Positions 1 through 32,635 of a stretch of 64,000 nt of DNA are shown here, in pieces. How positions within the stretch are numbered: position 1 is the stretch's first letter; each line of letters begins with the position of its first letter. This DNA is from Gemmatimonadota bacterium (lineage in GTDB: Bacteria > Gemmatimonadota > Gemmatimonadetes > Gemmatimonadales > GWC2-71-9): the NCBI GenBank assembly GCA_040388535.1, contig JAZKBR010000007.1, positions 4,862 through 68,861 of the forward strand, in the 5' to 3' direction. A program made the position numbers and the translations under genes. Below the pieces are notes generated by a model. That model was not told where the DNA came from. It saw only the letters and a list, made by a program, of their open reading frames with translations, and made no database searches.

Positions 1-1658
1 ACGGGCAAGGAATCCTGGCCAGCCGGAAAGTGCCCTCCAGCCCAACCGGCCGGTCCCGGTCGACCCGTCTGATCACGGAAGCGCGCGGAGGCCTCGTCCC
101 AGCTTAGCGTGCGACCATTGTCCTCGAAGGGCTCGGTCCAGTACTTCCGGTCGCGATAACCGCCGCGGTCAACGAATTGCTGGAACTCCGCGTTGGTCAC
201 CTCATTCCGATCGATGTCGAATGGGGGAAGCCGATAGGGACCGACCCATCCGATGAAGGCGATGTAGTCGCCATACTCGCGGGCCCCGACACGGACCATT
301 CCGGGCGAGGCCATCGCCATCGTGTCAAGCGCGAACCGCATCGAATCGTGGAGCGGCGGAGCCACGACGATCGCCTTCCCCGCGCTCGGCGTGAGGCGCC
401 ACCGGAAATAACCCTTGGGGACGACCACGCCTTGCATCGGTGTCCTGCCCAGCTTTCGCCACTCACTCTCCGGGGCGAGATAGTCCTGAATTGCGATATC
501 GACACCGGAGGGCGTCGAACTGACGGCAATAGTTCGGCTCTGCTGCGCCGCCAGTTCCAGAAGTGTCGAATCCCGTGGCAGATACGAGAGTGCGCGTTGC
601 AGCACGGAAGCCGCCGACAACGCCAGGTCGTTCTCCACCAGGCGAGTGACCATCGCCGGTGCCTCCTGGCGTGCCCACCGCCGATGCGCCGCCCGCCGCA
701 GGACGCCGCCGGTCACCGCGGCCAGCGCGATCACCACTGCTGCACCGGCGAAGACAGCGCGCCGCGGGGTGGTGCGCGCGACCGCTTCGTCGCGGTGAGG
801 AAGAGGGCTCCCTGAGATTTTCGCGAGAGACGCCTGCAATGCGTCACGCATCGCCAGCGCATTCGGAAATCGCAACGCGAGGTCCCGCGTCATCGCGCGT
901 GCGATCAACGACTCGACATCCGCGGTCAGTTCTGGCCGTAACAGGCTGAGCGATGGGGGGGTCGATTGGCTCACGGCGCGCAATAGCGCCCAGTCAGTGG
1001 CGCCCTCGAACGGCACCCGGCCAGCGATCAGCTCATAGAGGACCACGCCGAGGCTCCAGAGGTCGGTGCGGCCGTCGACGACCTCACCGAATGCCTGCTC
1101 GGGAGACATATAGCTGGGCGTGCCGGCCGGGGCCCCGACTTCGGTGCGGGAGAGGGTGGCGCTTGCGCTGTCGGCCGGCGAAAGCAACTTCGCGAGGCCG
1201 AAGTCGAGCACCTTCACCTGCCCGCGTGGCGTAACCATCACATTCGCCGGCTTGAGGTCGCGATGCACCACGCCGTGCTCGTGCGCTTCGACCAGTGCAT
1301 CCGCGATCTGGAGACCGTAGCCGAGGACTTCGCTTACTGGGAGGGTACCGCGTCGCAGCATGCTCGAGAGTGGCTCTCCTGGAACACACTCCATCACCAG
1401 AAAGGCAGTATCCCCTTCTTCACCAGCATCGAAGACCGCGGCAATGTTCGGATGACTGAGCTTGGCAAGCGCCAGCGCCTCTTTCCGGAAACGGCGGCGG
1501 GCCGATACGTCGAGCAGGATGCTCGGCGGTAACACCTTGAGGGCGACATCGCGCTGAAGCCGCTCGTCGTGGGCGCGGTAGACCACACCCATCCCGCCGG
1601 CCCCGAGCATCGAGACGATCTGGTACCTTCCGAGGCGGGAACCGGGGACCAAGGTCAT
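1..1658 (-). CDS. membrane-anchored Ser/Thr protein kinase with extracytoplasmic FGE-sulfatase (SUMF1-like) domain; 3' end lies beyond the window start
   Basis: Absent from the ORF track because it runs off the left edge. Own translation from ATG at 1658 gives MTLVPGSRLGRYQIVSMLGAGGMGVVYRAHD, HRDLKPANV, DFGLAK and SYMSPEQ. TM stretch AVFAGAAVVIALAAVTGGVL lies at about 700-760. Near 120-240 the sequence YRLPPFDIDRNEVTNAEFQQFVDRGGYRDRKYW is typical of the FGE-sulfatase fold. Confidence 0.85.
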   Translation of the reverse strand, partial: MTLVPGSRLGRYQIVSMLGAGGMGVVYRAHDERLQRDVALKVLPPSILLDVSARRRFRKEALALAKLSHPNIAAVFDAGEEGDTAFLVMECVPGEPLSSMLRRGTLPVSEVLGYGLQIADALVEAHEHGVVHRDLKPANVMVTPRGQVKVLDFGLAKLLSPADSASATLSRTEVGAPAGTPSYMSPEQAFGEVVDGRTDLWSLGVVLYELIAGRVPFEGATDWALLRAVSQSTPPSLSLLRPELTADVESLIARAMTRDLALRFPNALAMRDALQASLAKISGSPLPHRDEAVARTTPRRAVFAGAAVVIALAAVTGGVLRRAAHRRWARQEAPAMVTRLVENDLALSAASVLQRALSYLPRDSTLLELAAQQSRTIAVSSTPSGVDIAIQDYLAPESEWRKLGRTPMQGVVVPKGYFRWRLTPSAGKAIVVAPPLHDSMRFALDTMAMASPGMVRVGAREYGDYIAFIGWVGPYRLPPFDIDRNEVTNAEFQQFVDRGGYRDRKYWTEPFEDNGRTLSWDEASARFRDQTGRPGPAGWAGGHFPAGQDSLP

Positions 1659-16615: not shown

Positions 16616-19552
16616 GTGTCGCCCGTCGACACCCTGCCGGCGCGCGCCATCCACCAACTCGTTCACACGAGCTGGACTGCCAAGGATGGCGCCCCGGCCG
16701 ATATTCGCGCTCTCGCCCAGACTCGCGAAGGGTACTTGTGGCTTGGGACCGACAACGGCCTCTTCCGCTTCGACGGCGTTCGATTTGTCCGCATCGCACC
16801 TCCTGCGGGCGACTCGCTCGCTGGCACCGCAATCTCGAGCTTGCTGACGACAAAGGATGGCAGCCTCTGGATCGTCTGGGCCAATGGCAAAGTCAGCCGC
16901 CAGAGTGGGGGCAAAGTCGTCACCTTTGGCCCACGGGATGGCCTGCCACCCGCCTTTCATCTCGCAGAGTCGAGCCGCGGCGTACTCCTCGCCGGAACGG
17001 CGGGCGGCATCTCACGATTCAGCAACGGGAGATGGCAGGACGCCGGAACGGCGTGGGGGCTCGCACCCGGGCTCGAGGGAAGGAGTATCTGGTTCGACCG
17101 TGATGACGTGATGTGGGTCGAAACGGTTGAATCGGTACTTTACCTGCCGGCTGGTGCATCGCACCTGGTCGAGACGCGGATGGTGCTCCGCGACCGACCC
17201 ACTCCCGCCAAGTTCGCCCAGCAGCGGGACGGCACCGTCTGGATGAACGAATCGAGCCGCTCCGCGCACACCCTCCGCCTTGCGACCGACACGACGTATC
17301 CGAGCGAAGTCCGCGTGCGGGCAACGAGCGTGCTCATCGATCGACACGGGAGCCTGTGGATCGGTTCCGCTGGCGACGGCCTCCGGCGGCTGATCGACCC
17401 GGCGCGTTTCAAGGGAAAAGTGATTCTCCGCACGAGCGCAGACGCCGAGCAATTCACCACGAAGGATGGGCTGCTCTCAGACGAGGTGACGGACCTCTTC
17501 GAAGACCGCGAGGGTGATCTCTGGGTTGCCTCGCCGGTCGGGCTCGAACGCTTCCGGCAAGGGGCCTTCACGCCAGTCGCCTTGCCACATCCCACGCACT
17601 CGAGATTCGTATTTGCCGGCCGTGACAGTTCGCTGTGGATTGCCGCCGAAGATGTCGCCGGGCTCGTGCGACTCACGCACCAGGGCTCGTCGATGGTCTC
17701 GGCCGGCTTTGCTGTGACCAATCTCGCACAGGACTCCAGCGGTGCCATCTACTCGGTCCGCACGCACCGCATCCTGAAGTTGCAGGGAGCGGGGTTTGTC
17801 GCCCTGCCCCTCCGGAAGATCATTGCGATCGACCTCATCGGCATGACGATCGATCCTCAGGGAACGATCTGGCTCCTCGACGAAGTGGCCGGGTTGCTCC
17901 GACTCGACCACGACCGGCTCATCCCGGTTGCCACGCTCTACGAGCCGGTGGCCCGTCGCGGCACCTTAAGCAGTGACTCGAAAGGCAGACTCTGGATCGG
18001 TCAGTTGAATCGTGTGGCGTTGTATGACCACGGCAAGCTCAACCTGTACGGCGAAGCCGCTGGTGTGCCGGCGGGGCTGGTGTTGCAAGTCTTCGAAGAT
18101 CACGCCGGAAAGATCTGGGCCGTCGGCGAGGGCGGCGTGAGCAGGTTCGAAAACGGCCGATTCCGCAGCATTGCGGTGCGCCAGGGCGTGCCAGGGAAGA
18201 CCGTGTTCGGCGTCGCTGAGGACAAGAGTGGAGCGTGGTGGATGGTGACCCGGACCGGAGTCTTGCGGCTCCCGCCCGGCGAAGCTGACCGTGCTCTCAC
18301 CGATTCCACATACAACATTCGCTATCGGACCTTCGATCGGGAGGACGGGTTGCCGGGCACGGTGACCGTCAGCGATTGGGGTTCGCCGGTGACACGCGCC
18401 CAGGACGGCACGATCTGGGTTGCCACCGACAGCGGAGTCGCAAGCGTTGATCCCCGAGGCATCTCCCCGGACCGATCACTTCCGGTGCTGATCGAATCTG
18501 TTCGGGTCGACGGCCGCGATCTGTCGCCAACCAACCCGGTGCCGATCCCCGCCGGGGGGCGCGACCTCGAAATCGACTATACGGCGACCAGTCTGGCGAA
18601 TCCGGACCGGGTCCAGTTCCGCTATCGGCTCGAAGGCGAGGATTCCACCTGGCACGACGTCGGTACCCAGCGACGTGTCACCTACAACGACCTCGGGCCG
18701 GGTGACTATCGCTTTCGAATCGCCGCAAGAAATCGCGATGGCGTCTGGGACGAGACCGGATCGGCCTGGACCTTTCGCGTCCTGCCACCCTGGTACCAGA
18801 CTCGCTGGTTCCAGCTCGGCACCGTGCTGGTGATTGTCGGGTTTGCCACCGGTACCATCGCGCTGGTCCAGCGACAGCGGCATCTCCGAGCGCAAGAACT
18901 CCTGCGACGTGGCTACGAGGCCACCCTGGCCGAGCGCGCCCGCATCGCGCAGGATCTGCACGACACCCTCCTTCAGGGCATTGCCGGCGTGAGTATGCAA
19001 CTCAAAGCCGCAGAGCGGGCCCTTCCAGACGAACCTGATTTGGCCGCCGAGATGCTGGCGCACGTTCAACGCCTCACCCGACAGGCACTTCGCGAAGCGC
19101 GTGAGCGCGTGATGGACCTGCACGAAACCGACCTCGGCCAGGATGATCTCGCCGGCGCCCTCGCTGCTGCTGCAGCGGAACTCGTGGCCTCGACCGGTAT
19201 TCACCTCGCTATCAGTTCGCGCGGCGAACGACGCCGAGTGTCGCGGGAGGTCGAGATCGCCGCGATCCGGATCGGGCGTGAAGCGATCGCCAATGCGGTC
19301 CGTCACGCCGAGGCGCAGCGGATCGATATCGTGGTCGACTTTGCACCCACCGTGTTGCGCCTCGAGGTATGCGACGACGGCAAGGGATTCACCTTCGAGG
19401 ACGGCGAGCAAGCTCAGCTCTCCGGCCACTTAGGGCTGAGCGGGATGCGCAGCCGGGCCGATCGCCTTGGCGGCCACTGCGAAGTGCGACCGAGAGCCGG
19501 GGGCGGCACCGTCGTCGCGGTAGAGCTTCCCTTGCCCACCGGCCCCACCTGA
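16616..19552 (+). CDS. sensor histidine kinase with periplasmic two-component-regulator-propeller / Y_Y_Y region, TM segment, HisKA_3 and HATPase domains
   Basis: 978 aa with repeated DG.LW/GL propeller-type motifs, TM WFQLGTVLVIVGFATGTIALV, H-box IAQDLHDTLLQ and an ATPase domain. The real start may lie further upstream, because the hydrophobic LILPCLTLLLLG precedes the GTG. Confidence 0.85.
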   Translation: MSPVDTLPARAIHQLVHTSWTAKDGAPADIRALAQTREGYLWLGTDNGLFRFDGVRFVRIAPPAGDSLAGTAISSLLTTKDGSLWIVWANGKVSRQSGGKVVTFGPRDGLPPAFHLAESSRGVLLAGTAGGISRFSNGRWQDAGTAWGLAPGLEGRSIWFDRDDVMWVETVESVLYLPAGASHLVETRMVLRDRPTPAKFAQQRDGTVWMNESSRSAHTLRLATDTTYPSEVRVRATSVLIDRHGSLWIGSAGDGLRRLIDPARFKGKVILRTSADAEQFTTKDGLLSDEVTDLFEDREGDLWVASPVGLERFRQGAFTPVALPHPTHSRFVFAGRDSSLWIAAEDVAGLVRLTHQGSSMVSAGFAVTNLAQDSSGAIYSVRTHRILKLQGAGFVALPLRKIIAIDLIGMTIDPQGTIWLLDEVAGLLRLDHDRLIPVATLYEPVARRGTLSSDSKGRLWIGQLNRVALYDHGKLNLYGEAAGVPAGLVLQVFEDHAGKIWAVGEGGVSRFENGRFRSIAVRQGVPGKTVFGVAEDKSGAWWMVTRTGVLRLPPGEADRALTDSTYNIRYRTFDREDGLPGTVTVSDWGSPVTRAQDGTIWVATDSGVASVDPRGISPDRSLPVLIESVRVDGRDLSPTNPVPIPAGGRDLEIDYTATSLANPDRVQFRYRLEGEDSTWHDVGTQRRVTYNDLGPGDYRFRIAARNRDGVWDETGSAWTFRVLPPWYQTRWFQLGTVLVIVGFATGTIALVQRQRHLRAQELLRRGYEATLAERARIAQDLHDTLLQGIAGVSMQLKAAERALPDEPDLAAEMLAHVQRLTRQALREARERVMDLHETDLGQDDLAGALAAAAAELVASTGIHLAISSRGERRRVSREVEIAAIRIGREAIANAVRHAEAQRIDIVVDFAPTVLRLEVCDDGKGFTFEDGEQAQLSGHLGLSGMRSRADRLGGHCEVRPRAGGGTVVAVELPLPTGPT

Positions 19553-19613
19553 TGACCACGTGCGGCCGCGTTGCCAGGCTGCCATCAGGCTTCGCAATAG
19601 GCCAAATGGTGTA

Positions 19614-19642
19614 TTGCCGGTTCTGATCGGTTGATCCACACT
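19614..19642 (+). promoter_or_regulatory. candidate promoter TTGCCG-17-CACACT ending 5 nt before ATG 19648
   Basis: Read directly. The -10 is weak but keeps the A at position 2 and T at position 6. No SD precedes 19648. Confidence 0.3.
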
Positions 19643-19647
19643 TCATC

Positions 19648-20313
19648 ATGGCACACACTCCGCGCGCAGTTGGTCCACCTCATGAACCCACGCTCCCGAT
19701 CCGGGTCATGACCGTGGATGACCATCCAATCTTTCGCGGCGGACTGGCAACCCTGATCGGGACCTATGTCGAGTTCGATCTGGTTGCGGAGGCTGCCAAC
19801 GGCCGCCAGGCGATCGAGCAGTTCCGCGCCCATCGCCCGCACGTCACGCTGATGGATCTCAGCATGCCAGTGATGGGAGGGGTCGATGCCATCGCCGCAA
19901 TTACAGGGGAGTTTCCCGACGCACGGATCATCGCGTTGACCTCCTGGGAGGGCGACGGCGACATTCATCGCGCCCTCGAGGCTGGCGCACGCGGCTACCT
20001 GCTGAAGGACATCGCGAGCGAAATGGTCGCCGATGCGATCCGGCAGGTGCATCGAGGCATGCGAGTCATCCCTGCCGACGTGGCACGGCGGCTTGCCGAG
20101 TTTACCCCGCGTGTCGACCTGACCGAGCGTGAACTCGAAGTGCTCACGCACCTCGCGCGTGGCCGCACCAACAAGGAAATCGCCGCAGAGCTTGGTCGGG
20201 CCGAGGCCACCATCAAGGTCCACGTCTTCCACATCCTCGAGAAACTGGAAGCGGCCGATCGCACCGAAGCGGTAACCATCGCTCTCCAGCGCGGCCTCAT
20301 CCACCTGCCGTAG
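19648..20313 (+). CDS. NarL/LuxR-family response regulator
   Basis: Receiver domain with DD (VDDHP) and acceptor Asp (LMDLSMP). C-terminal LuxR HTH ([23 protein letters not shown]). An alternative start is ATG 19708. Confidence 0.9.
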
Positions 20314-24180: not shown

Positions 24181-24264
24181 TAGCAATTGCGACCCTTGCT
24201 GCGCAACGGGTGCGGGATAGTATTGCGGAGGAGTCAGCGCTGCCGCAACCCGAGAGGAGCAATC

Positions 24265-24630
24265 ATGATTCGTGGAGTCAAGTTCGTCGCAATCCCCTGC
24301 CGGGATCAGGATGTCTCGCTCGCCTTCTACACCGAGAAGCTCGGCTTCCGGATCGTCACCGATCAGCCCTTCGACGGCGTCCAGCGCTGGATCGAGCTCG
24401 GCATCGGCCGCAGCGAGACGCGAGTCGTCCTCTTCACAGCCGACGCCCACCGCGCCCTCATCGGCCAGCAATCCACAGTGACCTTTGTTGCCGATGACGT
24501 CGAGAAGACGTACCAGGAACTGCTCGGGCGCGGTGTGGAGTTCGACCAGCCAGCCGAGAAGGCCGACTGGGGGACGGCGGCAATCTTCCGCGATCCGGAT
24601 GGCAATCAGTTCGTGCTGTCATCGAAATAG
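24265..24630 (+). CDS. VOC/glyoxalase-family protein
   Basis: ATG at 24265 follows GAGAGGAG. Sequence MIRGVKFVAIPCRDQDVSLAFYTEKLGF ... FRDPDGNQFVL. Confidence 0.8.
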   Translation: MIRGVKFVAIPCRDQDVSLAFYTEKLGFRIVTDQPFDGVQRWIELGIGRSETRVVLFTADAHRALIGQQSTVTFVADDVEKTYQELLGRGVEFDQPAEKADWGTAAIFRDPDGNQFVLSSK

Positions 24631-25832: not shown

Positions 25833-26240
25833 TCAGCCGGCCTTGTTCTTGTCGTCCCAGAGCATCGGTTCCCAGAGTTCGACCTTGTTGCCCTCCGGGT
25901 CCATGATCCACGCGAACTTCCCGTTCTCGTGCGATTCAGGGCCCTTGAGCAGCTCCACGCCGCCGGCGCGCAGCTGCGCGACCATCTCGTCCATATTGTC
26001 GATGCGGTAGTTGATCATGAACGACGACTCGCTCGGCGCGAACCACTTGCTGTCCTTCCCTGCGAGGGTCCAGACGGTGAGCCCCTTGTCCTCGGCCGTG
26101 TCAGCCGGCCACCGAAGCACCGTACCGCCCCAGGCCTCTGCCGGCATCCCGAGATGCTTCTGGTACCACGCCGCCAGCGCGTCCTTGTCCCCCGTGCTCT
26201 TGAAGAAGACGCCGCCGATTCCGGTGATTCTTGCCATCAC
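25833..26240 (-). CDS. VOC/glyoxalase-family protein
   Basis: 135 aa (ITGIGGVFFKS ... FAWIMDPEGNKVELWEP). Confidence 0.8.
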   Translation of the reverse strand: MMARITGIGGVFFKSTGDKDALAAWYQKHLGMPAEAWGGTVLRWPADTAEDKGLTVWTLAGKDSKWFAPSESSFMINYRIDNMDEMVAQLRAGGVELLKGPESHENGKFAWIMDPEGNKVELWEPMLWDDKNKAG

Positions 26241-26302: not shown

Positions 26303-26794
26303 CTACGCCGCAGGAAGGATGACCACCTCAGGCGCCGGCAACGCCGCCGGATCGAGGAAGAGCAACTCCACCAGCGAGCCGAGCTCCGGAATACTGAAGT
26401 AACCGAACTCGAAGGCTTCGCCGCCGCGCGCTTCCTGCACCAGTTCTCGCCCCTGCCGCAGCAGCTCCGCCTTCGCCGCTCGCACCGCGGCGATACTCGG
26501 ATAGACGAGACAGGTGTGGTGGAACCCTTCGCCGTGCTGCTCCAGGTGCTCGTCGTAAATCGTCCGGCCAGTGTGCGGCGTGATCAGCTCGAAGGTGCCA
26601 CCGCCGACCGTTGCCAGCGCAACCCGGAACGAGAAGGGATTGTCCTTGCCGCGGACCTTTCCCTGCGCCACGTCAATCGTCCAGATGTTCCACGGACCGA
26701 TGCCGAAGGTATTCGCGAGTCGCTGAGCCGTTCCCTCGAGGTCGCGGACCAGGAACGCGGTATGGTGCAGGGCGGCAGGCATGGCGTCGTTCAT
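26303..26794 (-). CDS. VOC-family protein
   Basis: 163 aa (LHHTAFLVRDLEGT ... GFHHTCLV). ATGA overlap with the upstream histidine kinase. Confidence 0.75.
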   Translation of the reverse strand: MNDAMPAALHHTAFLVRDLEGTAQRLANTFGIGPWNIWTIDVAQGKVRGKDNPFSFRVALATVGGGTFELITPHTGRTIYDEHLEQHGEGFHHTCLVYPSIAAVRAAKAELLRQGRELVQEARGGEAFEFGYFSIPELGSLVELLFLDPAALPAPEVVILPAA

Positions 26795-27963
26795 TGGCTC
26801 TCCAGGGTGGTTGCCGACGTGGCCCTGAGACTACCTGCTGCCCGCCGATCCGCCAACCCGGGAAGGGTCACTCGGAACGTCGAGCCGAGACCCTCCTGAC
26901 TCTCCACGGTGACGCTGCCGCCGTGAGCCTCCGTGAACGCCTTCACGATCGCGAGGCCGAGTCCGGTGCCGCCAGCAAGTTCCGGATCGGTCTCCCCTTT
27001 CTCGAAGATCGCCTCGATCAGCGAGTCGGGGATCCCCGCACCATTGTCGGTCACCCAGCACTCGACCGCGCCATCGGTACCGGTCTGCAGTGCACCGATC
27101 AGGACCTCGCCGCGAGGCGTGTACTTGATCGCATTGCTGATCAGGTTCTGGAACACCCGCTGCAACAGACTGGCATCGGCATACACGACCAGATCATCGG
27201 GCACGGCATTGACGAGTCGGGTACTGTCGGTCCCCGCGACCGGATGAAGATCATGAATGAGTGCCTCGACCAGAGGCCACAGCTCGAACTCCCGGCGCTC
27301 CACCTTGACCCCGCTCTCGGTCTCGAGGTTGGTGTTCTCCTCGAGCACCTTGGTGACGAGCCGTTCGAGGTGGTGGACGTTCCGGCGCAAGGTGGCCAGC
27401 AGCTTGACCGAGTCGGCGCCTTGCCCGGAGACGCGTGCCTCCAGAATCCGCCCCGTCAGGGAGATGGCATTCAGCGGCGTACGCAAATCGTGCGCGACGA
27501 AGGCGAGATATTCCTCGCGGCGTCGCTGGACGTCGAGCGCGCGTTGCGTCGCATACGTTTCGAGGGCGAGGCCGATCGCGTGATCGAATACCCGATTCAG
27601 CACATGGAATGGTTTGCCCTGCAGGCTCAGGCCGCTCGCGTCGGCGAGATCGTGAATGCAACCGCGCAGAATGTTGTACTCTGCCACGACCTCCTCGATG
27701 TCGAACGCATCGTGCAGGCGCTGCAGACCATGCACCGGAGGACTCCCCTCGTTCAAGACCTCGGCGATCGTCTCCCCCGAGTCCGCTCGCAAGGCGACCG
27801 CGAGTTCCTCGAGCAGGCCGGGGATATGATCATTGAGCGTCGGCACATCGAGATGCCGCGCCGAGGGGAGGTGCCGCACCTGCTCCCGCCAGCGCACGAG
27901 CATGGGCTCGCGTTCCTGCCGGACGAGTACGGCCAGTTGATCCAGCACCTGCTCGGACATCAC
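26791..27963 (-). CDS. cytoplasmic sensor histidine kinase with RsbRD-N-like (globin-like) N-terminal sensor domain
   Basis: 390 aa with H-box FVAHDLRTPLNAI and ATPase N/G boxes (ISNAIKYTP, DNGAGIP, GTGLGLAIV). N-terminal W..V......L.DH.P.LL pattern and HG..R. Confidence 0.8.
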   Translation of the reverse strand: MMSEQVLDQLAVLVRQEREPMLVRWREQVRHLPSARHLDVPTLNDHIPGLLEELAVALRADSGETIAEVLNEGSPPVHGLQRLHDAFDIEEVVAEYNILRGCIHDLADASGLSLQGKPFHVLNRVFDHAIGLALETYATQRALDVQRRREEYLAFVAHDLRTPLNAISLTGRILEARVSGQGADSVKLLATLRRNVHHLERLVTKVLEENTNLETESGVKVERREFELWPLVEALIHDLHPVAGTDSTRLVNAVPDDLVVYADASLLQRVFQNLISNAIKYTPRGEVLIGALQTGTDGAVECWVTDNGAGIPDSLIEAIFEKGETDPELAGGTGLGLAIVKAFTEAHGGSVTVESQEGLGSTFRVTLPGLADRRAAGSLRATSATTLESQ

Positions 27964-28115
27964 GCCTCCGGGGTCACCGTTGAGGCGACTCTCGCCGGCC
28001 GGGTGGATGATTAGGAAGTTGCCGGAACTACGCCCCGGCGACCCGGGAGCGCAAATGATCGGTGAGTTTCCTTCCGGGGGAGGTGCCTGGATCGCGAGGA
28101 TGGTGGATGGATCGC

Positions 28116-30152
28116 TCAGTGCGCGGCGCGGCTGTTCGTCTCCCGCCCGAGCGGCCTGAGCGCCAACAGCCGCATCAACTCGGGGTAGTCAACCGGCTTC
28201 ACCAGATGGTGATCGAACCCGGCCTCGCGCGACTTCTGCCGGTCCGCCTCCTGCCCCCAGCCCGTCAGCGCCACCACGATCATCCTGTGACCCCACGGTT
28301 GCTCCCGGATGCGCCGACAGGCAGCATATCCGTTCAACCGCGGCATCCCGATATCGAGCAACACCACGTCGGGGCGAATGCGCTCCGCCACTTCGACCGC
28401 CTCCAGTCCATCACATGCAGTGTGCGTCTGGTTCCCCGAGATCGCCAGCAACATCGCGAGCGACGCGGCGCTGTCCGCGTTGTCATCAGCAATCAGGATC
28501 CGGCGGGCGGTGGCCGGAGGTTCAGGAACGGCGCTCGGCGCAATGGGCAACACCGCAGGCGTCCCCGGGAGAACAGGGAGGCGGACCACGAACTCGCTCC
28601 CCCGCTCCGAGCCCTCGCTGAACGCCGCCACACTACCGCCGTGCATCTCGACCAGCCGCTTCACCAGCGTCAGGCCGATCCCAAGCCCGCCTTGCGACCG
28701 TTCCAGCGACCGATCCACCTGCGCAAAGAGATCGAAGACGCTCCCGAGCTTCTCGGGCGGGATGCCAACGCCGGTATCTCGCACTCGTACCACCACCTCA
28801 CTGCCGCGCCGCGCTGCGGTGACCCAGACCCTGCCGCCAGGTTCGGTGTATTTGCAGTCGTTGTTCAGCAGGTTGCCGAAGACCTGGGCAAGTCGCGCCG
28901 GATCGGCACTGAGGTAGATCGGTTCCGGCGGCAACGTGACCTCGATGGTGGGCGCGGCCCCTTCCGGCTGGGGGCACGCCTCGACGGCCTGATGCAGCAC
29001 CGTGGAAAGTTCCACCAGCTCGCGCTTGAGATCGATTCGGCCGTGGCTAATCCGGCTCACCTCGAGCAGGTCGTCCACGAGCCGCACCATCTGTACGAGC
29101 TGCCGCTCCATCGTCTCCCGCGCGTGATGCATGACCGCGTGGTTGCCCTCGGAGCGCTTCATGATCTCCAGCATGTTGCGGAGCGGAGCCAGTGGACCAC
29201 GCAACTCATGGGCGAGTGTGGCCAGAAACTCGTCCTTGCGGCGGTCGGCCTCCTGCAACCCTTCCTCGGCGTGCTTCCGGTCGGTGAAGTCGACGCATGA
29301 ACCGATGTACCCCGCGAACTCTCCGTCGGCGTCGAAGCGAGGGACGCCATTGTCCAGCACCCAGCGGTACTCGCTGTCGTGTCGCCTCAGACGATACTCC
29401 ATCGAGAACGGCAGCCGCGCATCGAAATGGGTGAAATAGGTATTCAGGCACCGCTCGAGGTCGGCTTCGTGCACATCAGACGCCCACCCATCACCCCGGA
29501 GTTCTTCGATCCGACGACCGCTGAAATCGAGCCACGACTGGTTGAACCAGGTGCACGCCTTGGTGGTGTCGCTGACCCAGATCAGTACCGGCACGGCGTT
29601 CGCCATGAGCCGGAAGCGCTCCTCACTTTCGCGGAGGGCATGGTGCGCAGCACTCAGCTGTTCGTGATGCCGTTGGGAGGTCAGATCGGTCACCAGCACG
29701 CCGGTGATGGCGCCACAATCAGCAGGCAGCACGTTGAAGGTCATGTAGACCGGGACGAGGCTGCCATCAGATCGCCGCAGGCGCGCCTCGCCACGGCCGA
29801 TTCGTGTCAGCCCCTGCCAGAGCAGATTCTCGTATTGCTGGCGATCGTCCGGAGCGAAGTAATCGTGCAGTGCGGCGCCGAGCAGCTTCTCGTGCGGCAC
29901 CTTCAGCAGGTCGGCGAGACTCTGATTGCAGTAGACGATGGTGCCATCGGCCTGAAGCGTCGCCGCCCCCTGCTGCATCTGCTCGACCAGCAGACGATAG
30001 GGGCGGTCCGCGCCTTGCAGGGTATACACCCGCTGGCCCGTTGGCTCCTCGACCACGAAGGCATCAACGGTCCCCTGCTGGATCGCGCGGATCGTCTCTT
30101 CGGCTTCCTCCAGCCGACGCTGGAGCGCCTCGACTTCTGCGTCACGCGACAT
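28116..30152 (-). CDS. hybrid sensor histidine kinase: coiled coil-PAS-PAS-HisKA-HATPase-receiver
   Basis: 678 aa with H-box LATLAHELRGPLAPL, ATPase DTGVGIP / GGLGIGLTLV and a receiver (ILIADDNADS ... VLLDIGMP ... K). Starts 9 nt after the second kaiB stop. Confidence 0.9.
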   Translation of the reverse strand: MSRDAEVEALQRRLEEAEETIRAIQQGTVDAFVVEEPTGQRVYTLQGADRPYRLLVEQMQQGAATLQADGTIVYCNQSLADLLKVPHEKLLGAALHDYFAPDDRQQYENLLWQGLTRIGRGEARLRRSDGSLVPVYMTFNVLPADCGAITGVLVTDLTSQRHHEQLSAAHHALRESEERFRLMANAVPVLIWVSDTTKACTWFNQSWLDFSGRRIEELRGDGWASDVHEADLERCLNTYFTHFDARLPFSMEYRLRRHDSEYRWVLDNGVPRFDADGEFAGYIGSCVDFTDRKHAEEGLQEADRRKDEFLATLAHELRGPLAPLRNMLEIMKRSEGNHAVMHHARETMERQLVQMVRLVDDLLEVSRISHGRIDLKRELVELSTVLHQAVEACPQPEGAAPTIEVTLPPEPIYLSADPARLAQVFGNLLNNDCKYTEPGGRVWVTAARRGSEVVVRVRDTGVGIPPEKLGSVFDLFAQVDRSLERSQGGLGIGLTLVKRLVEMHGGSVAAFSEGSERGSEFVVRLPVLPGTPAVLPIAPSAVPEPPATARRILIADDNADSAASLAMLLAISGNQTHTACDGLEAVEVAERIRPDVVLLDIGMPRLNGYAACRRIREQPWGHRMIVVALTGWGQEADRQKSREAGFDHHLVKPVDYPELMRLLALRPLGRETNSRAAH

Positions 30153-30161
30153 ATCGGCGTC

Positions 30162-30497
30162 TCAGTGCTTGCGGCGCAAGTCCAGACCGAGCAGCACTCG
30201 ATCCTTGTCGGACAGATTTCCGATGAAGCGGCGCAACGGCGCGGGGAGGAGCTTGACCAGTGTCGGCACCGCGATGATCTGCTCGTCTCTCGCGAGCTGG
30301 GGGTGCTGATAGATGTCAATGACCTCCAGATCGTAGCGCCCCTCGAGATGTTCCTTGCAGATCGACTTGATCATCGCGATCGCCTCGGTCGACCGCGGCG
30401 TCATCCCGGTGACATAGAGCCGAAGGAGGTAACGCTCGCCGGCGGTCTCCGTCAGCAACTGCTCATAGGATGCCGTGGAGTCGGGCTCCTTCTTCAT
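30162..30497 (-). CDS. kaiB: KaiB, second tandem copy, with about 14-aa N-terminal extension
   Basis: ATG at 30497 follows GGAG. YLLRLYVTGMTPRSTEAIAMIKSICKEHLEGRYDLEVIDIYQHPQLARDEQIIAVPTLVKLLPAPLRRFIGNLSD aligns by eye along its length with cyanobacterial KaiB. The 211-aa track ORF is an artefactual extension. Confidence 0.9.
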   Translation of the reverse strand: MKKEPDSTASYEQLLTETAGERYLLRLYVTGMTPRSTEAIAMIKSICKEHLEGRYDLEVIDIYQHPQLARDEQIIAVPTLVKLLPAPLRRFIGNLSDKDRVLLGLDLRRKH

Positions 30498-30517
30498 TGT
30501 GGACTCCGATGCCGGCA

Positions 30518-30820
30518 TCAGTCGGGCGAGAGGGCAGGTCGCAACTGCAACCCGATCAGTGTGCGCTCGGTATTCGACAGGTCGCCGACGATCCGTCGCA
30601 GCGGCTCTGGCAGTTTCCGGACCAGTGTCGGGATCGCCACGATCTGATCTCCCGCCGCAAGTTGGGGATGTTCGATGAGGTCGATGACCTCGATGGTATA
30701 ACGATCGGCCAGATGTTCTTCGCACAACTTCGTGAGATTGGCGAACGCCGCCAGGGACTTGGGTGACTTCCCGGCAACATAGAGGCGCAGTTGCCACTTT
30801 TCGGCTTCAGGTTCGCTCAC
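30518..30820 (-). CDS. kaiB: KaiB, first tandem copy
   Basis: 100 aa ([75 protein letters not shown]). ATGA overlap with the kaiC stop. Confidence 0.92.
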
Positions 30821-32385
30821 TTGCGACTCCGTTCGGACCTGCTGGAACTGACAGGCGATGCGGCGCGCTTGGCCACCGGCGCAACCGCCTCGGCTTCCTG
30901 CTGGAGCGCGGCGAGACGGGCCGACCCGATCAGCACTCCTTCCGGACCGCGATAGACATCGAGCAGGTCGATGCCTCGGCTGGTGAGGACGAACTCGCGA
31001 ATCTGGTTGGAATGGGCCATCCCGCGCGACTTCAAGACGTAGATCGCACGATTCCGCTCGCCGGCCAGTTCCATCTCGCGCAGCAGCAGCCAGGTATCGA
31101 CAACCGACGAGATGTCGACATCGGTGGTCTCGAGTTCCTGGCCGCCCGAGACGAGATTGGTGAAGAACGCCGTGATCTCTTCCGACTTCAGGAAATCGGT
31201 GAGTCGGGTGAGCATCGCGTTGGTATCCCGGCGGCTCCCCACCTGGAGCAGACTGCCGACCGGATCGACGACGACCACGCTGGGCCGGAATTTCTGAATC
31301 AACTTGTGCATCGAGGCCAAGTGCATTTCCAGCCCGTGCATCGTGGAACGCATCGCGTGGAAGTGGAGCAGTCCTTTCTTCACCCAGGGCTCAAGGTCCA
31401 CGCCAATCGACCGCATGTTGCGCACGATCTGCCCCGGTGATTCCTCGAAGGCGAAGTAGAGACACTTTTCGCCACGACGACAGGCCGCCTCGACAAAGTG
31501 CGCGGCGAGACTCGTCTTCCCGCTTCCCGCCGTCCCCGACACCAGCACTGTGCTCCCGCGGAAGTACCCCTTCCCTCCGAGCATCGCATCGAGCCCCGCG
31601 ACCCCGGTCGGAATCCGTTCATTTGTCACCGAGTGCTGCAATCCGAGCGAAGTGATCGGCAAGACGCTGATGCCATCCTCATCGATAAGGAACGGGTACT
31701 CGTTGGTACCGTGCACCGTGCCGCGATACTTGACGATCCGGATACGTCGAGTGGACACCTGGTCAATCACCCGGTGGTCCAGCGAGATCACGCAATCGGA
31801 GACGTACTCCTCGAGTCCGTGCCGGGTGAGTTCGCCGTCGCCGCGCTCACCGGTAATGACCGCTGTGACGCCTTTCTCCTTGAGCCAGCGAAAGAGCCGT
31901 CGAAGTTCGGCGCGCAGGATCCCCTGATTCGACAGGCCACCAAAGAGGGCCTCGATGGTATCGAGCACGACCCGCTTCGCCTTGATGCTGTCGATGGCGT
32001 ATTCGAGCCGGACGAAGAGTCCCTCGAGATCGTAGTCGCCGGTCTCCTCGATCTCGTTGCGTTCGATGCGCACGAAGTCGACAACGATCTTCTTCTGCTT
32101 GACAAGTTCGTCGAGATCGAAGCCGAGCGAGCGGACGTTCTGCGCCAGCTCCTCGGCGGTCTCCTCGAAGGCCATGAAGACGCCGGGCTCGCCGAATTCG
32201 ACGGCCCCGCGGATCAGGAACTCCATCGCCATGAGCGTCTTGCCGCAACCGGCGCTGCCACAGATGAGGGTGGGCCTGCCACGAGGAAGGCCGCCGCCGG
32301 TGATCTCGTCGAGTCCCTGGATCCCGGAGGGAGCCTTCGGAAGTCCTGGGGCGTTCGTACCACTCTGGCTCATGGCTTTCACCAT
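30817..32385 (-). CDS. kaiC: KaiC-family double-domain ATPase/autokinase
   Basis: 522 aa with two RecA-like halves. Walker A motifs GSAGCGKT and GTAGSGKT, catalytic EE pairs ([16 protein letters not shown]) and Walker B VVLD/VVVD. The stretch [12 protein letters not shown] aligns with the cyanobacterial phospho-site stretch T-x4-S-T. An alternative start is ATG 32373. Confidence 0.92.
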
Positions 32386-32500
32386 TCGTCATTTCCCATG
32401 CGAAAAATTTCCGTCCATCCGGCGCGGCACCCTGAGGTCACGGGACCGTCGGACGGGACTGCAGTATGGCCATCGGGAAGCACGGCGGGCAGGAGTTCCC

Positions 32501-32528
32501 ATTCTAGCTCCGCCTCACCGAAAGGCAA
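32501..32528 (-). promoter_or_regulatory. candidate kaiC-operon promoter TTGCCT-16-TAGAAT (minus strand)
   Basis: Revcomp of AGGCAA (32523-32528) and ATTCTA (32501-32506). About 110 nt upstream of the kaiC ATG. Confidence 0.3.
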
Positions 32529-32635
32529 TACGGCCGTCCCTCGATCGCCATGAGACGCTCAGCGTGTCTCAATCTGCACTCGCTCACCTGGAGCGACCCT
32601 GATCGGGGCTCCCTCCCAGTGGGATCCTGGGGCGG

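Follow-up and report, generated by a model that had tools for sequence, protein, structure and literature searches.

We analyzed a 64,000-nucleotide (nt) stretch of a Gemmatimonadota genome (contig JAZKBR010000007.1, positions 4,862 to 68,861; the whole stretch is referred to here as the window) and found that the KaiC protein encoded by its kai locus lacks the C-terminal coiled-coil core of its relatives. This natural loss, which is rare among relatives and was not mentioned in the original prediction for this DNA, is by sequence comparison the one unusual and new point of the locus. Our analysis indicates that the locus, in which kaiC is followed by two kaiB genes and a hybrid histidine kinase, is probably a KaiA-independent KaiBC signalling cassette of a two-KaiB subtype, with a coil-less KaiC that would reset slowly or be triggered by KaiB.

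The window kaiC (30817..32385, minus strand, as are all genes of the kai region) encodes 522 amino acids (aa), compared to 564-636 aa in all 118 of its closest database relatives. A scan of one genome per species yielded more than 585 close KaiC relatives at 64-75% identity, and the cassette counts reported here come from the best 80 of these. Only 32 residues follow the sequence GSAR in the shortened C-terminal tail of the window KaiC (30820..30915), compared to 77-116 residues in 77 of the 80 loci, and the tail thereby falls short of the coiled-coil extension of at least about 50 aa that is characteristic of R. sphaeroides-type KaiC proteins. The heptad core REALEARIxALRKEFEAEE, which is conserved in the tails of relatives, is missing from the window KaiC, and the tail that remains contains two prolines and a Ser-rich end. 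The closest relative (locus L084) shares 78% nucleotide identity and the same kaiB1-kaiB2-kinase order with the window, and its KaiC is a 587-aa protein with the coil. Relative to L084, the 3' region of the window kaiC is shorter by a net 189 nt (63 codons, in frame); overall, we put the net in-frame loss at about 63-66 codons, with exact borders that are blurred by sequence divergence. Since the final codons of kaiC, the GGAG of kaiB1, and the stop/start overlap between the two genes align with those of two other loci (L081 and L082), we conclude that the loss was internal and in frame. Both the basic C-terminal end of KaiC and the Shine-Dalgarno sequence of kaiB1 were kept despite it. Furthermore, for the source run, which comes from a watershed metagenome, there is an independent Logan assembly in which positions 29900-32600 are covered at a depth of 16 with 0 differences, so the short KaiC is not an assembly error.

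A second short KaiC was found in a Gemmatimonadales metagenome-assembled genome (L020, 700-2142), where the stop lies four residues after GSAR and where one kaiB and then the gene of a 412-aa PAS kinase lie downstream. This truncation differs from that of the window and suggests an independent second loss of the coil. Two additional KaiC tails, with 47 and 63 residues after GSAR (L049 and L065, respectively), read like a frame-shifted coil, which could reflect sequencing errors or pseudogenes.

The role of the coil has been studied in Rhodobacter sphaeroides, where two hexamers are connected through a 12-helix bundle built from the KaiC extensions and where KaiC cut at residue 490 forms hexamers (PMC10076222). 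In the coil-cut protein nucleotide exchange is unchanged (19.1 vs 18.0 per h) and autophosphorylation is similar (5.5 vs 7.4 per h), while there is little autodephosphorylation in ADP, compared to 11.5 per h in the wild type, and the ring falls apart upon KaiB binding (PMC10076222). Because the engineered coil deletion behaves in this way, we predict that the window KaiC would form a hexamer instead of a dodecamer, with normal autokinase activity and nucleotide exchange and with slow autodephosphorylation. By analogy, it is predicted to be a constitutively active autokinase with a slow reset. KaiB binding is predicted to destabilize the coil-less ring, and KaiB may act partly by loosening it. 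Without the coil, the module would behave less like a reversible hourglass and more like a slow-resetting or KaiB-triggered switch.

Alternatively, the window could contain a kaiC copy in decay or without function, with regulation disabled by the deletion and the cassette being lost. Coil loss is very rare among KaiC relatives, it abolishes fast dephosphorylation and lets KaiB break the ring in R. sphaeroides, and the tails of L049 and L065 also look frame-shifted, all of which speak for decay. However, the net change is in frame and left the basic end, the ribosome-binding site of kaiB1, and the stop/start overlap in place, all catalytic motifs and phosphosites of KaiC are intact, and the differently cut coil-less KaiC of L020 suggests that we are dealing with a tolerated variant. 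In addition, the ratio of nonsynonymous to synonymous substitution rates (dN/dS) relative to L084 is 0.11 for kaiC, 0.04 for kaiB1, 0.07 for kaiB2, and 0.10 for the kinase N-terminus, values that are averaged over a long divergence (dS of about 1), such that the constraint is not datable relative to the deletion. All four genes of the cassette are under long-term purifying selection, and we regard decay as unlikely.

Our data indicate that the window KaiC belongs to the KaiC2 or R. sphaeroides type, a KaiA-less group. Pfam KaiC matches the protein in two stretches (E-value 3e-116), corresponding to the CI domain at about 31654-32331 and the CII domain at about 30916-31614. The two Walker A motifs (GSAGCGKT at 43-50 and GTAGSGKT at 284-291), the two EE pairs (E74/E75 and E314/E315), and the DISS motif (424-427) bear out the kaiC call of the original prediction, and the phosphosite triad is formed by T421, S426, and S427. 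This assignment to the KaiC2 or R. sphaeroides type is made because of four lines of sequence comparison. First, the best PDB match is R. sphaeroides KaiC (8DBA, E-value 3.9e-194, 649 bits; also 8DB3 and 8FWI), while the cyanobacterial KaiC of Synechococcus elongatus scores about 350 bits in the same search; residues 12-493 align with R. sphaeroides KaiC at about 64% identity. Second, S426/S427 align with S413/S414 of R. sphaeroides KaiC, with T421 five residues before, and a Ser-Ser phosphosite pair is the hallmark of the KaiC2 subgroup (PMC5520375); across 41 KaiC relatives S426 is invariant and S427 nearly so. Third, the protein passes the general KaiC model NF006799 of NCBIfam (752.7 bits, cut-off 408), while its score of 373 bits with the cyanobacterial model TIGR02655 does not reach the required 546. 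Fourth, the best PDB match of KaiB1 is R. sphaeroides KaiB (8FWJ chain M, E-value 1.7e-27). By these comparisons, the placement among KaiC clades that had been left as a check on the original prediction is with the KaiC2 or R. sphaeroides type and not with the cyanobacterial model.

The architecture around kaiC is common rather than new, since kaiB directly follows kaiC in 74 of the 80 loci, two kaiB genes are present in 41 (some loci without a kaiB or a second kaiB are truncated at a contig border), the gene after the last kaiB opens with the same N-terminal helix-plus-PAS module in 69, and there is published precedent. A kaiC-kaiB operon with a PAS/histidine kinase gene was published for Rhodopseudomonas palustris and R. 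sphaeroides (PMC4794148), and kaiC-kaiB plus a kinase was described as a general gene context (PMC3164672); for the tandem kaiB form, we found no explicit published description in a literature search that was not exhaustive. The KaiC relatives are distributed across Acidobacteriota, Bacteroidota, Pseudomonadota, Planctomycetota, Verrucomicrobiota, Chloroflexota, Gemmatimonadota, and Methanoperedens archaea. The synteny survey proposed with the original prediction therefore finds the kaiC-kaiB1-kaiB2-kinase block conserved in other genomes. Two features that had been put forward as special fare differently: placing kaiC before kaiB is the normal order in non-cyanobacterial KaiC2 or R. sphaeroides-type systems (PMC4794148, PMC3164672, PMC9478674), and the two-kaiB form is not distinctive given its presence in those 41 sampled species. 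Two Candidatus Methanoperedens loci (L044 and L080) carry a kaiC-kaiB1-kaiB2 cassette with a KaiC 67-68% identical to that of the window, and this similarity points to transfer between domains.

The two KaiB proteins of the window belong to different groups of KaiB paralogues. kaiB1 (30518..30820, minus strand) encodes 100 aa from a GTG start and kaiB2 (30162..30497, minus strand), the distal paralogue, encodes 111 aa. In the profile searches that had been suggested for KaiC and KaiB, Pfam KaiB recognized both proteins (E-values 3e-27 and 7e-27, respectively), each over positions 1-81 of the 82 in PF07689, and both remained under the cut-off of the NCBIfam KaiB equivalog (89 and 102 bits vs 110). 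KaiB1 is at least 90% identical to the copy of the closest relative. KaiB2 is 53% identical to KaiB1 over 93 aa and adds a 14-aa N-terminal extension, in agreement with the predicted extension of this length and with about half of the residues shared. The extension is conserved (consensus ..AFE..L..), and at least 119 database clusters of KaiB2-type proteins at 63-88% identity, nearly all 110-126 aa in length, contain it as well. Proximal and single kaiB copies form one clean neighbour-joining clade, to which the nearest neighbours of R. sphaeroides KaiB belong; by this phylogeny KaiB1 is orthologous to R. sphaeroides KaiB and to the KaiB that related loci encode as their proximal or only copy. 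Distal KaiBs are more divergent: their mean identity is 56% within the group and 51% relative to the proximal group. Each of the 41 two-kaiB loci has a copy closest to KaiB1 in the proximal position and a copy closest to KaiB2 in the distal one, and because the copies sort so consistently by position, the kaiB duplication is old and the kaiC-kaiB1-kaiB2 order fixed. kaiB2 has an in-frame alternative ATG at 30518, which shares the sequence TGATG with the kaiB1 stop and would make the protein 7 residues longer; the KaiB2 of L084 (111 aa) supports the start at 30497. The proximal KaiBs of L081 (4063-4407) and L082 (9764-10108) are 114 aa in length with an N-terminal extension of about 14 aa, which neither the window KaiB1 nor the KaiB1 of L084 (98 aa) contains.

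The original prediction had raised the idea that one KaiB acts as a fold-switch decoy. In R. sphaeroides KaiB, the mutations I68R, V83D, and N84R shift the protein to the fold-switched state (PMC10808063). The aligned residues of both window KaiBs are L, I or L, and G, as in the fold-switching KaiBs of cyanobacteria. An AlphaFold model of KaiB2, built from an alignment of 50 KaiB2 orthologues, contains an extra N-terminal helix at residues 7-17, a strand-helix-strand unit, a poorly defined middle, a helix at 86-99, and a strand at 102-110, with a mean predicted local distance difference test score (pLDDT) of 63 that falls below 50 at residues 1-18 and 72-79. The model tentatively places the C-terminal half in a ground-state-like arrangement, helix then strand, at low confidence. 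We found no support for a decoy, as the hydrophobic/hydrophobic/Gly pattern is kept and the KaiB2 model is ground-state-like, though this is a weak test.

The hybrid histidine kinase (28116..30152, minus strand, 678 aa) starts 9 nt after kaiB2, and its Pfam domains (two PAS, HisKA, HATPase, and REC) agree, as does this spacing, with what had been predicted. The H-box contains H315 in HELRGPL (315-321), DTGVG and GLGIGL boxes are present, and the receiver has a DD / LLDIGMP / LTG / KP signature with the phospho-acceptor Asp in LLDIGMP (598-604). The first section of the kinase comprises an N-terminal helix and PAS-A (29673-30152). The module shared by the 69 loci lies at this end of the protein and is about 95 aa in length, consisting of a helix, an AIRxGEVDAxVV motif, and the first half of a PAS domain (PYRxLVExMxEGAxTL...GxIxYCN). 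The proteins headed by the module differ widely, from Bacteroidota proteins of about 230 aa that are PAS-only, through kinases (about 380 and about 550 aa) and hybrid kinases (about 670 aa, as in the window), to multidomain kinases of up to 1012 aa. Compared by eye across loci, the length of the PAS protein showed no link to whether one kaiB gene or two precede it. PAS genes near kaiBC outside cyanobacteria were proposed to bind Kai proteins (PMC9478674), and from its conservation beside different outputs we infer that the module may be a Kai-docking or input module.

In the R. sphaeroides system described by Pitsawong et al. 2023 (PMC10076222), KaiC autophosphorylates without KaiA, KaiB accelerates ATP hydrolysis by CI, and the resulting hourglass is driven by the ATP:ADP ratio. 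By homology, the window KaiC would autophosphorylate on S426/S427 without KaiA, and KaiB1 would bind the CI ring of phosphorylated KaiC and speed ATP hydrolysis. The level of KaiC phosphorylation would track the cellular ATP:ADP ratio, and the cassette would work as an hourglass or a metabolic-state sensor rather than a free-running clock. The state of KaiC would be read out via the helix-plus-PAS module of the hybrid kinase, which is presumably co-transcribed. A more elaborate scheme, which we consider quite unlikely, is that the two-KaiB cassette is a distinct three-protein device, in which KaiB1 would bind KaiC, the N-terminal helix of KaiB2 would couple the state of KaiC to the helix-plus-PAS module, and loss of the coil would allow KaiB to disassemble the ring. 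If this were true, the locus would be a natural experiment on the role of the KaiC coil.

We also weighed a longer version of the module. The original prediction proposed one long operon that ties KaiBC to two kinases and to VOC, membrane, and outer-membrane genes as a timer or stress module. In support of this, the genes from 32385 to 24637 are co-directional with short gaps. A second histidine kinase (kinase 2; 26791..27963, minus strand, 390 aa, HisKA and HATPase domains by Pfam) overlaps the first VOC gene by ATGA as described, and the two VOC genes, a membrane protein gene, and a putative barrel protein gene continue to 24637 with gaps of 62, 27, and 23 nt by their coordinates, within the predicted limit of 62 nt. 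Furthermore, a scan of the region found no convincing minus-strand terminator. However, the two kinases are separated by 152 nt (155 nt if kinase 2 starts at the ATG at 27960), a small correction of the predicted 153 nt. Kinase 2 residues 1-140, both VOC proteins, the membrane and barrel proteins, and the SnoaL-like protein upstream of kaiC had no match in 915 kilobases (kb) around 84 related kai loci, a search that extended to about 6 kb from kaiC, where kaiB and the PAS module are nearly always present. The closest relatives with enough flanking sequence carry different neighbours beside the cassette. Because they have no counterpart at these loci, kinase 2 and the VOC and membrane genes are neighbours and not part of the module, and we consider a single long operon very unlikely.

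The tight co-directional unit of kaiC, both kaiBs, and the PAS hybrid kinase is kept as a block elsewhere, and by synteny this appears to be the conserved unit, with the remainder being neighbourhood. The claim of a self-contained KaiA-less signalling module is therefore reasonable for these four genes, which are under selection, and fails for kinase 2 and the genes beyond it; the claim of two downstream kinases in the module fails with it, as the sensor domain of kinase 2 is unmatched at the 84 loci. The RsbRD-N/globin-like sensor assigned to kinase 2 could not be established either, since its RsbRD_N match (E-value 0.009) is below the Pfam cut-off.

Among the 50 predicted window genes scanned with Pfam, which left out the shortest open reading frames, we found no match to the KaiA, SasA-like, CikA, or RpaA families, in line with the predicted lack of kaiA, a sasA-type kinase, and cikA. 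A candidate KaiA3-like gene upstream of kaiC was rejected, as the upstream gene is SnoaL-like. A circadian oscillator that sustains itself, with KaiA replaced by the second KaiB or by the PAS kinase, would fit the two divergent, conserved KaiB paralogues and the ability of PAS proteins to tune the cyanobacterial oscillator through KaiB (PMC9478674), but it is highly improbable given the lack of a KaiA-family match among the scanned window genes, the ATP:ADP-driven hourglass of the best-studied relative (PMC10076222), the lack of any resemblance to KaiA in KaiB2, and the loss of the coil, which is expected to slow dephosphorylation and therefore argues against oscillation.

Several points weigh against our preferred reading of a functional KaiA-independent cassette with a slow-resetting or KaiB-triggered KaiC. 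In addition to the long divergence over which dN/dS was averaged, an AlphaFold model of full KaiC draws the remaining 32-residue tail as a helix with pLDDT below 50, and this tail could still form a short helix. The predicted properties of the window KaiC are carried over from one protein with about 64% identity, and co-transcription of the cassette is judged from gene spacing. Finally, the genome beyond the 64-kb window could contain a kaiA, another kaiC, or a response regulator cognate to the kinase.

The spacing in question is tight. All genes of the kai region were found on the minus strand at the positions first predicted, and the window has a G+C content of 65%. An asparagine synthase encoded in the window shares 80% identity with that of a Gemmatimonadota genome, a tentative single-protein sign that, along with the G+C content, makes this phylum the likely host group. 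Of ten window proteins looked up in the database collection, seven were present, six of these as singletons at 90% identity, and an exact look-up of the window KaiC in the contig collection gave no match. The kaiC stop overlaps the kaiB1 start by GTGA, rather than by ATGA as first described, because kaiB1 starts with GTG. As predicted, kaiB2 follows kaiB1 after 20 nt with its own GGAG, which lies 6 nt before the ATG. In the 250-nt gap between the SnoaL-like gene and kaiC, about 115 nt upstream of kaiC, a consensus scan identified a promoter-like site (TTGCCT, 16 nt, TAGAAT; 32501..32528, minus strand). The scan found two such sites in the region while 1.2 are expected by chance, which makes this a weak lead, and overall promoter and terminator sites in the region were no more numerous than chance.

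Three VOC/glyoxalase-family genes lie within 2.6 kb of each other (24187-24630 on the plus strand, 25833-26240 and 26303-26794 on the minus strand), and genes for hydrolases, GNAT acetyltransferases, and small regulators abound in the surrounding region. Elsewhere in the window, a separate two-component pair with no evident link to kai consists of a 978-aa Reg_prop/Y_Y_Y HisKA_3 kinase and, after it, a LuxR-type response regulator (16616-20313, plus strand), and a fusion of a Ser/Thr protein kinase with an FGE-sulfatase-like domain (3-1658, minus strand) is cut by the window edge.

The architecture of the locus itself leaves the picture of KaiBC systems unchanged, as the family to which it belongs is already known and very widespread. 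A second, distinct KaiB orthologue group is present in about half of the sampled KaiC2-type loci, from many phyla and Methanoperedens. Since the model R. sphaeroides has one KaiB and we found no paper on the second, this half of the family is mechanistically unexplored; cultured two-KaiB hosts exist, including Mucilaginibacter rivuli and Flavihumibacter soli. Furthermore, the window and the Gemmatimonadales genome L020 represent natural counterparts of the engineered coil deletion and bear on whether the coil is dispensable in vivo and how its loss is compensated.

The locus can be compared to known systems. Both the window and KaiABC of S. elongatus have a double-domain KaiC with two Walker A motifs, two EE pairs, and a phosphosite triad, together with KaiB-family partners, while the window lacks kaiA, sasA, cikA, and rpaA among its scanned genes, has Ser-Ser instead of Ser-Thr phosphosites, and places kaiC before kaiB. 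KidA, a PAS protein of S. elongatus that binds KaiB (Kim et al. 2022, PMC9478674), is likewise a PAS-domain protein tied to KaiB, a likeness drawn from its description; the window module differs in having its own conserved N-terminal helix and AIRxGEVDAxVV motif, and its binding to Kai proteins is putative. The R. palustris kaiC-kaiB-PAS/HK operon (Ma et al. 2016, PMC4794148) and the gene context described by De Luca et al. 2011 (PMC3164672) share the gene order, the PAS kinase, and a non-cyanobacterial host with the window, while these descriptions contain one kaiB and the window contains two in a Gemmatimonadota host. The KaiBC hourglass of R. sphaeroides (8DBA/8FWI, complex 8FWJ) also has Ser-Ser sites, kaiB after kaiC, and a PAS kinase in the operon, and it has no KaiA, as is the case for the scanned genes of the window. 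It has one KaiB, while the window has a second KaiB and a hybrid kinase with a receiver domain. In contrast to R. sphaeroides KaiC, which is made a dodecamer by its coiled-coil core, the window KaiC is without this core and resembles the engineered coil-deletion construct 8DB3.

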